NCBI GenBank assembly: GCA_016204695.1
Contig: JACQKD010000001.1
Location: forward strand, 68,976-132,975
Reading direction: 5' to 3'
Length of the DNA stretch: 64,000 nucleotides
Origin: Candidatus Kaiserbacteria bacterium
GTDB taxonomy: Bacteria > Patescibacteriota > Minisyncoccia > Phycocordibacterales > UBA918
The position numbers and the translations under genes are program-made. Positions 23,280-24,365 of this stretch are shown one piece after another. How positions within the stretch are numbered: position 1 is the stretch's first letter; every line of letters starts with the position of its first letter. The notes beneath the pieces were generated by a model. That model saw only the letters and a program-made list of their open reading frames with translations, made no database searches and was not told the origin of the DNA.

Positions 23280-23356
23280 ATACGCTGTATGGTACTGTGC
23301 GTCCTGTCGGAATCAACCTGCCGGTGCGGATAACTGGCATACTCATACAAACGCAT

Positions 23357-23385
23357 TTGACCCTGTGGATAATTTTATATAATGC
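23357..23385 (+). promoter_or_regulatory. Sigma70-like promoter (TTGACC-N15-TATAAT) giving a near-leaderless transcript for the YdeI-like gene
   Basis: ttgaccctgtggataattttatataat lies 5-6 nt upstream of the ATG at 23390. Confidence 0.35.
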
Positions 23386-23389
23386 TCGC

Positions 23390-23641
23390 ATGAACAAAAG
23401 AGAGATCGCAGGTGGCGTTGTGCACCGGATTCCGTCCGATTTGCGAAAAGTTCTTGCTTCAGCCCTGACCGCAGAAGCGGCATGGCACGATATCACCCCG
23501 CTCGCGCGCAACGAGTGGATTTGCTGGATTACATCCGCCAAGAAACCGGAAACGAGAAGTCATCGAATCAAGCGGGCGTGCTCCGAGCTCATGGAAGGCA
23601 TCCGTCGCCCCTGCTGCTGGGCCGGCTGTCCGCATCGGTGA
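23390..23641 (+). CDS. YdeI/OmpD-associated family small protein (DUF1905/YdeI-like)
   Basis: C-terminal EWICWITSAKKPETRSHRIKRACSELMEG resembles the YdeI C-terminal consensus. Confidence 0.5.
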   Translation: MNKREIAGGVVHRIPSDLRKVLASALTAEAAWHDITPLARNEWICWITSAKKPETRSHRIKRACSELMEGIRRPCCWAGCPHR

Positions 23642-23901
23642 GATAGTCAGTAAGGATGTCCCGTCACTGTCGAAGAATACCAATTTTGACTTTAGGTCAA
23701 TTGTAACGTATAACATTCGCGTGTTACCTATGATAACCAACCCACGGGAGAGTGTGGTGCGATCCACATGCAAGTGTCCCACTTGCGGGTGTTTTGTGTT
23801 GTCATAGTTTTCTACTCCTCTTCTAGAATTAGAATAATTTTGATACATACGCCCCGCAAGTGGGTGGTTTTCTGTTTTACTTGGAAATTAATTCTTCTAC
23901 T

Positions 23902-24329
23902 ATGAAGTCACATACATCTCGAAAACATAAACACGTTTTTCTCCGAATGAGGCGCCATTCCGATGCCTCAATTGTCACGTCGTGATTCCCAACACCACTT
24001 GGGGTACCATGCATCGTAATCACTGCCCACTGTGTCTTTGGTGCAAACATGTCGATCTGAAGATGCCCGGAGATCGTCGTTCTCTATGCCAGGGAAGAAT
24101 GAAACCGATCGGGTTGACGCGTAAGTCCAAGGGCGAACTGATGGTTGTGCACCAATGCCTGAAGTGCGGCAAATTGTCTCCTAATCGAATTGCCGGTGAC
24201 GATAATTGTGACGTGCTGTTGTCTTTGCTTGAAGAGCCGATCCAGCGAAGACGCATCACGATGATACCTTTGGCGGATCGCGATCAGGTACTGACAGCGT
24301 TATTCGGGTACGACCACCCGGATATTTAA
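23902..24329 (+). pseudogene. RNHCP-domain zinc-ribbon protein gene broken by a 1-nt frameshift at a T5 run (23936-23940); a sequencing indel, a programmed frameshift or a true pseudogene
   Basis: The downstream frame reads GTMHRNHCPLCLWCKHVD (the RNHCP motif). The first CxxC (RCLNC) lies upstream in the same frame in a stretch with no start codon. An ATG-initiated 27-codon ORF (MKSHTSRKHKHVF...) in the +1 frame overlaps at the T5 run; adding one T fuses them into a single 142-aa protein. Confidence 0.6.
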
Positions 24330-24334
24330 CCGAT

Positions 24335-24365
24335 AAAAAGTCCCACCCTACGGTGGGACTTTTTG
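24335..24365. terminator. Bidirectional rho-independent terminator after the RNHCP gene
   Basis: aaaaa-gtcccacc-ctac-ggtgggac-ttttt. Confidence 0.6.

Follow-up and report, generated by a model that had tools for sequence, protein, structure and literature searches.

The RNHCP gene in the window, by which the whole 64,000-nt stretch of Candidatus Kaiserbacteria DNA analyzed is meant, is split between two reading frames, and is most plausibly expressed (probability about 0.8, as judged from comparative sequence data) by programmed -1 ribosomal frameshifting at a U_UUU tetramer, stimulated by a hairpin. Ribosomes would start at the AUG at 23902, translate 13 codons (MKSHTSRKHKHVF), and the tRNA-Phe would slip back one base at U_UUU (23937-23940), stimulated by a stem-loop at 23948-23970, 7 nt downstream. 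Decoding in the -1 frame (SPNEAPFRCLNC...HRNHCPLCLW...) would continue down to the UAA at 24327-24329, and yield a 142-aa RNHCP protein predicted to hold two zinc sites. Ribosomes failing to slip would stop at the UGA at 23983 and release a 27-aa basic peptide, presumably a by-product.

The upstream component is an ORF of 27 sense codons on the + strand (23902-23985, encoding MKSHTSRKHKHVFLRMRRHSDASIVTS), which starts at ATG 23902 and ends at the TGA at 23983-23985. The RNHCP frame lies one base behind. It is open from 23931, next to a TAA stop at 23928-23930, down to the TAA at 24327-24329, and encodes SPNEAPFRCLNCHVVIPNTTWGTMHRNHCPLCLW..., including FRCLNC and HRNHCPLCLW. Upstream of GTG 23982-23984, the sole canonical in-frame start ahead of the RNHCP motif, this frame contains no ATG, GTG or TTG. 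No in-frame start lies 5' of the first cysteine pair, C-L-N-C (23964-23975; C22 and C25 in the fused protein), which does not vary in the family. The HRNHCPLC motif, with the second cysteine pair (24012-24035; C42 and C45), is marked out by sequence, Pfam and conservation. The two frames overlap at a T5 run (23936-23940), and one T added to the run fuses them into a protein of 142 aa. The initial annotation had described this same arrangement (the RNHCP motif and second cysteine pair in a start-less frame, RCLNC upstream in the same frame, a 27-codon ATG-initiated ORF overlapping it at ttttt, fusion by a single extra T), and each element was found again on translation. If the slip takes place as proposed, the -1 frame is read over 23937-24329, Phe being re-read at 23937-23939 and followed by UCU at 23940-23942. 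The gene is closed by an intrinsic terminator (24335-24364, + strand; stem GTCCCACC / GGTGGGAC, then T5). A sub-threshold match to the sRNA family STnc370 was obtained in Rfam over the terminator hairpin, and no Rfam match at the recoding site or in the leader of the gene.

The initial annotation had explained the frame break either by an indel error in sequencing, by a pseudogene formed recently, or by programmed frameshifting on a slippery run of T, with comparison of orthologues as a check. The DNA of the window, T5 included, is found without mismatches over 541 nt in two independent assemblies (SRA runs SRR12113384 and SRR12113383), in which the RNHCP locus is called only as an 88-aa fragment from an internal ATG (P0002). 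DNA-level searches of species-representative genomes and metagenomes yielded at least 160 RNHCP loci, and the same -1 split, at the same position, was observed in at least 66 distinct relatives, counted as distinct protein sequences. Among the matches listed, no in-frame ATG, GTG or TTG precedes the invariant FRCxxC in 62 distinct loci, and the upstream start lies in the frame needing a -1 shift in 62 of the 62 distinct split loci first analyzed. N-terminally short database proteins (P0005, P0010, P0013) fit the same scheme, their DNA having a conserved ATG in the frame ahead of RNHCP, and a T-run where one frame passes into the other. Split orthologues are about 45-76% identical, come from two phyla and many studies, and were detected in Roizman-, Gottesman-, Collier-, Woese- and Dojkabacteria, in other Patescibacteria, and in Anaerolineae/Chloroflexota. 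Two closed chromosomes, OY771913.1 (2.54 Mb) and CP066686.1 (1.08 Mb), carry the split cassette. The components shared are a start codon, about 10 codons, an in-phase tetramer, a spacer, and a covarying hairpin of 8-10 bp. Ordinary in-frame starts are found in Actinobacterial, Saccharibacteria, Parcubacteria-type and other RNHCP homologues.

A neighbor-joining tree built on 180 distinct RNHCP sequences groups the 66 split genes together, in one clade of 67 leaves. The single intact leaf of this clade, L003 (P0001, 141 aa), is the nearest neighbor of the window gene among the matches listed. In L003 a 2-nt length difference restores the frame, and the T-run is lost. The position of the ATG is kept in all members of the window clade, intact L003 included. 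One clade of 67 leaves with L003 as sole intact member indicates, at the level of sequence relationships, a single ancient origin of the split, its long maintenance, and one reversion. Between Cys2 and the RNHCP motif, synonymous codon differences exceed non-synonymous ones (15,381 vs. 11,937) among the 66 split loci, and FRCxxC...RNHCPxCLW is 95-100% conserved. The Arg codon of FRC is AGA in 34, CGA in 13, AGG in 9 and CGG in 4 loci, the Cys1 codon TGT in 51 and TGC in 10, the cysteine residue being 100% conserved. Judged by these codon comparisons, the -1 frame is under purifying selection.

Two observations on the taxonomic range of RNHCP genes are added. Some loci come from TPA MAGs labelled 'uncultured Gammaproteobacteria' or 'Pseudomonadales'; four of these (L007, L010, L011, L021) carry the split cassette and are nested among Patescibacteria sequences, three others (L039, L050, L053) have in-frame starts, and the labels look unreliable. 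Actinobacteria loci (L031-L086; Streptomyces, Nonomuraea, Kitasatospora, and others) contain two tandem RNHCP paralogues on the same strand, about 440 nt apart, both with ordinary in-frame starts.

In every orthologue featuring a T-run, the run ends exactly 23 nt ahead of the first Cys codon. The run closes with the third base of a 0-frame UUU codon, ahead of which stands at least one further U, giving a Z_ZZ.N tetramer, U_UU.U. The slippery tetramer is in phase in 61 of 61 loci scored; L118, scored separately, has U_UUC, and the Woese- and Dojkabacteria groups use A_AAA, inside A4-A6 runs. Run length is 4-5 for T and 4-6 for A, with T4 or A4 in most loci. In the window, the tRNA-Phe sitting on the 0-frame UUU at 23938-23940 can re-pair perfectly with the -1-frame UUU at 23937-23939. 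The codon located 5' of UUU, in the P site, does not re-pair in the -1 frame, so that the site amounts to a tetramer and lacks the full X_XXY_YYZ pattern of a classic heptamer. As a rule the -1 frame opens just 1-3 codons 5' of the run, and the 0 frame in most loci closes at a UGA within the 3' arm of the hairpin. The transition is therefore confined to about 35 nt, where the tetramer is the only repetitive element. No SD-like upstream stimulator was found at 10-14 nt, the spacing for -1 stimulation; purine-rich triplets occur 0-3 nt before the run.

In E. coli, tetramers alone direct -1 frameshifting when joined to a downstream structure (Sharma et al. 2014, PMC4066793). Their efficiency ranks A_AAG >> U_UUC > U_UUU > C_CCY > A_AAA over a range of 0.26-5.6%, and bare Z_ZZ.N motifs do not exceed 5.6% even with a strong pseudoknot (PMC4066793). 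Given this ceiling, the yield of the RNHCP frameshift may be low. By analogy with the E. coli tetramer sites, its efficiency is probably a few percent.

The hairpin proposed to stimulate frameshifting is delineated both by RNAfold and by family-wide covariation. In the window, residues 23948-23956 pair with 23962-23970, with one C.A mismatch and a loop at 23957-23961, and the stem begins 7 nt after the slippery codon. Folded alone it has an energy of -11.1 kcal/mol (z = -1.7, RNAfold), and is among the weaker hairpins of the family, the consensus of which is GTCAGRCATC-loop-GATGTCTGAC. The spacer between slippery codon and hairpin measures 6-8 nt in most groups; in the Dojkabacteria group A-run and hairpin are separated by about 14-18 nt, more than is canonical. 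For a 36-nt segment, the mean energy in the split loci is -13.7 kcal/mol and the mean z -4.15 vs. shuffles, and the mean z of the same segment is -0.19 in 115 intact in-frame homologues; coding for FRC alone thus does not create the hairpin. Covariation was monitored in a gap-free alignment of 63 sequences, against 500 shuffles and against registers in which the 3' arm was slid by 1-3 columns. Cells are paired at a rate of 87% in register vs. 20-43% in the slid alignments, compensatory double changes occur at four of ten pairs (30 cells), and none of the 500 shuffles matches the observed paired fraction, the number of double-change cells, or the covariation score. In the Woesebacteria group CAG...CUG is replaced by GAG...CUC, and the encoded residues change jointly, from Q/L to E/S. 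The hairpin is kept in intact L003 despite the restored frame. As it lies within conserved coding sequence and persists in L003, its conservation could in part reflect protein constraint or another role.

Three features distinctive of -1 programmed frameshifting are found together in the split loci: an in-phase slippery motif with cognate re-pairing in the -1 frame (a tetramer, not a full heptamer), a stimulatory structure about 5-9 nt downstream (the Dojkabacteria spacer being the exception), and a conserved frame transition leading into a constrained, start-less -1 ORF. A rival explanation is transcriptional slippage, RNA polymerase adding one U on the T-run so as to leave a fraction of the mRNAs in frame. 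In its favor, every locus has a homopolymer at the shift site, the product of a -1 ribosomal slip would equally be obtained from an mRNA with one U inserted, and slippage at short runs is known where RNA structure helps, as in a Roseiflexus IS element (PMC5009743). Yet most loci have just T4 or A4, and bacterial RNA polymerase slips efficiently at runs of about 9, and undetectably at T5C5 unless a nascent-RNA hairpin lies upstream (PMC5009743). Neither a run of about 9 A/T, nor a shorter run with a nascent hairpin directly upstream, is present in the RNHCP loci. The conserved, covarying hairpin lies downstream of the run, at the 6-8 nt typical of ribosomal stimulators, and the strict codon phase of the run matters to ribosomes, not to the polymerase. 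We regard transcriptional slippage as improbable, and infer that the shift is ribosomal.

The fused product of 142 aa reads MKSHTSRKHKHVF followed by SPNEAPFRCLNC..., and is made up by 0-frame codons 1-12 and by the -1 frame from Phe onwards. It scores 104.7 bits against the Pfam RNHCP profile (PF12647; gathering score for membership, 24 bits), and covers profile positions 3-89 of 90. The ORF starting at GTG 23982 scores 94.8 bits, over positions 14-89 only. The RNHCP domain, first cysteine pair included, thus reaches 5' of the only in-frame start. Invariant columns in the RNHCP alignment are C22, C25, C42, C45, C63, C86 and C89, and the complete set of Cys/His ligands, including the N-terminal CxxC, is found only in the trans-frame product. 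The window protein is 65% identical to intact P0001 (141 aa) over 100% of its length. The AlphaFold2 model of the fused sequence has a mean pLDDT of 82.5, rising to 91 in the segment of the first Cys pair (residues 21-30). By Pfam coverage and model together, the upstream Cys pair belongs to the ordered domain. Residues 1-20 are modelled at low confidence, which is consistent with a basic disordered tail. No significant relative of the fused protein was found by sequence search of the PDB, or in the PDB by Foldseek, where small beta-barrel proteins (Cren7, Tudor domains) gave the best E-value, 0.7, a value allowing no functional inference. No match was found in NCBIfam or PADLOC, and a literature search on RNHCP returned nothing relevant.

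The position of the first Cys pair also bears on internal initiation, by which RNHCP would start at GTG 23982 (115 aa) in the window, or at internal starts in relatives, and lack that pair. GTG 23982 is in frame, and gene callers give short forms of the protein (P0002, 88 aa; P0005, 125 aa; P0010; P0013), but all of these derive from loci with the split architecture. A start at the GTG-23982 codon is found in 1 of 66 split loci, the window only. In 57 of the 66 no in-frame canonical start appears until the RNHCP cysteine has been passed, and in 53 the first ATG comes 45 codons after Cys1. FRCxxC is invariant with synonymous codon changes, and a GTG start would drop a pair of cysteines which both the Pfam domain and the region ordered in the AlphaFold2 model take in. 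An exact look-up of the 115-aa ORF in public assemblies gave no match. Orthologues truly starting at the equivalent of GTG 23982 had been named in the initial annotation as evidence against a split gene; none came to light among the matches listed, the short database proteins being caller artefacts. GTG 23982 is rejected as the real start, and internal initiation is very unlikely.

Both indel errors and pseudogenes are classically recognized by a one-base break in frame at a homopolymer, but the chance of a sequencing or assembly indel, or of a recent inactivating mutation, is negligible, and both of these earlier suggestions are contradicted by the identity of the DNA in two independent read sets, by the recurrence of the break, to the nucleotide, in at least 66 distinct sequences from two phyla, closed genomes included, by its single origin on the tree and its association with a covarying hairpin, and by a downstream frame which is conserved, with more synonymous than non-synonymous differences, and shows neither the lineage-specific lesion nor the relaxed constraint of a pseudogene; contamination by one copied sequence is excluded by the mere 45-76% identity among related loci.

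Further candidates were considered and set aside. The start of P0003, P0004 and P0011 ('MRQASFRC...') is a gene-caller artefact, the TTG used being a Leu codon that is not conserved and lies shortly 3' of the slip site in loci holding the full cassette. Against a non-canonical start in the RNHCP frame, neither the window nor L004 has a near-cognate codon in the interval from the -1-frame stop to Cys1. Termination-reinitiation at a CUG overlapping the 0-frame UGA would lose the invariant Cys1. Decoding by +1 shift or quadruplet leads to the wrong frame, -1 being needed in 62 of 62 loci, and an alternative genetic code would require the frame change regardless.

An extended -10 box (TGnTATAAT) is found 6-9 nt, most often 8 nt, 5' of the start codon in about 50 loci among the matches listed, the start codon being ATG, or TTG in Anaerolineae. 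A -10 box directly ahead of the start codon would point to a leaderless start that sets the 0 frame. On this promoter evidence, the RNHCP mRNA is probably leaderless in these approximately 50 main-group loci, a 5'-terminal start fixing the 0 frame. In the window clade no -10 box resides beside the ATG, and the gene is preceded by an A/T-rich leader located 3' of a terminator-like hairpin. Of the explanations first offered for the window gene, the programmed frameshift at the slippery T-run is the one favored, the in-phase tetramer, covarying hairpin at canonical spacing and start codon fixing the 0 frame that are shared by the relatives all arguing for it. Palindromes overlap the -35 region of the RNHCP promoter in the main-group loci L008 (TGTCAAGTAATCTTGACA, about 25-45 nt 5' of TATAAT), L098, and L167/L168. 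They resemble operators, a hint that transcription may be repressed in addition to the frameshift.

A small ORF, conserved in the window clade, is located on the + strand 5' of the RNHCP gene (23721-23807; GTG...MLPMITNPRESVVRSTCKCPTCGCFVLS, then a stop), and is preceded by a promoter-like sequence (TTGACT...TATAAC, about 23667-23700). Its relatives encode MLTMTISISRVDVAKTACGHFVLS in L004, MLTMITTVSTPDVAQTTCGHFVLS in L006, and MLTMTISTSREDVAQSHCGHLVLS in L093, each followed by a stop; there the ATG lies about 6 nt 3' of a TATAAT box, and the ORF also looks leaderless. The region can form a long-range helix, CTATGAyAAy / rTTGTCATAr, in which two pairs covary, and has a folding energy of -33.1 kcal/mol (z = -2.7); no Rfam match was found for it. 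The ORF could specify a small protein, or act as a leader peptide or attenuator. Between the small ORF and the RNHCP ATG, the + strand has two terminator-like hairpins (23769-23800 and 23850-23876), both with a T-run after them, the first lying inside the 3' end of the ORF, an arrangement kept across the window clade. The stems of the two hairpins are mutual reverse complements (CCCACTTGCGGG / CCCGCAAGTGGG) and could pair together, and a promoter-like pair (TTGTCA...TAGAAT) resides between them.

In public assemblies (L001, L002), a gene is annotated for a 129-aa ORF on the opposite strand (23459-23848, -). This ORF, probably a spurious call, matches no Pfam family, shares about 180 nt with an OmdA/YdeI-like gene (23297-23641, +; PF13376), and covers the conserved non-coding/small-ORF region. 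Elsewhere in the window, the segment 30442-36009 (+) encodes an N6/N4 DNA methylase (PF01555), a ResIII/DEAD helicase of 828 aa, and a further ORF of 512 aa, and the segment 45426-48194 (+) a HerA/DUF87-like ATPase of 922 aa. Together they may represent a restriction-modification or defence island.

The RNHCP cassette is, on its sequence features, of the ordinary bacterial tetramer-plus-hairpin -1 type known from IS1 and IS3 elements, and related to dnaX. As in the orfA-orfB arrangement of IS1/IS3, the -1 shift is required for the functional product, and the upstream frame ends soon after the site. IS1/IS3 sites are Z_ZZ.N tetramers (A_AAG, U_UUU, U_UUC, A_AAA) or heptamers, followed a few nt downstream by a hairpin or pseudoknot (PMC4066793). 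Unlike IS1/IS3, RNHCP is a single-copy, chromosomal, non-mobile gene free of transposase features, its upstream frame is made up by about 10-13 codons holding no domain, and most members are apparently leaderless.

The E. coli dnaX signal consists of A_AAA_AAG, an upstream SD-like element and a downstream hairpin. Both dnaX and RNHCP are chromosomal, and feature a -1 slip on a homopolymeric codon for Lys or Phe, with a stem-loop about 6 nt downstream (PMC5009743). In contrast to RNHCP, dnaX has a full heptamer and an upstream SD-like stimulator, and its shift adds the shorter gamma beside full-length tau; in RNHCP the shift is required for the only domain-bearing product. In prfB (RF2), a +1 shift occurs at codon 26, with a UGA stop in the A site and an SD 3 nt upstream, and is autoregulated by RF2. 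An early, obligatory and conserved frameshift, failing which only a short peptide is made, is common to prfB and RNHCP (codons 10-13 in the latter), but the direction is opposite (+1 vs. -1) and the mechanism different. Non-mobile bacterial genes with -1 programmed frameshifting include, like RNHCP, copA and csoS2 (PMC5009743). The shift in these two genes truncates, and gives an additional product, whereas in RNHCP it extends a tiny ORF into the whole protein. To our knowledge, only a small number of non-mobile bacterial genes show conserved programmed -1 frameshifting, namely dnaX, copA, csoS2, cdd, and a few others. Literature searches on programmed frameshifting in Patescibacteria/CPR, and on leaderless mRNA, frameshift and zinc ribbon in combination, gave nothing relevant, and no earlier account of the RNHCP frameshift was found.

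With the RNHCP frameshift, these would be joined by a deeply conserved example from the Patescibacteria (CPR), a little-studied group, and from Anaerolineae, involving a whole subfamily of a domain of unknown function. Split RNHCP genes are now called as pseudogenes, as fragments of 80-125 aa, or from spurious TTG starts (P0002, P0003, P0005, P0010, P0013), and their annotation is affected accordingly. The cassette, about 45 nt of tetramer and simple hairpin, often on leaderless mRNA, is available in dozens of natural variants, lends itself to reporter tests, and is useful for the study of minimal -1 signals. More tentatively, the frameshift might serve as a regulatory sensor instead of a constant leak of low efficiency, RNHCP binding its own hairpin in an autoregulation of the prfB/antizyme kind, or zinc, charged tRNA-Phe or another signal tuning the shift; this is a rather unlikely extension of the frameshift model, and if true, an ancient control circuit that works by recoding of a leaderless mRNA would be common to CPR bacteria and Anaerolineae. 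The purpose of the frameshift, we infer, is to keep the RNHCP protein low or regulated, by limiting its dosage. Programmed frameshifting in this gene would imply that RNHCP dosage is under strong selection, a first lead to the function of the family.
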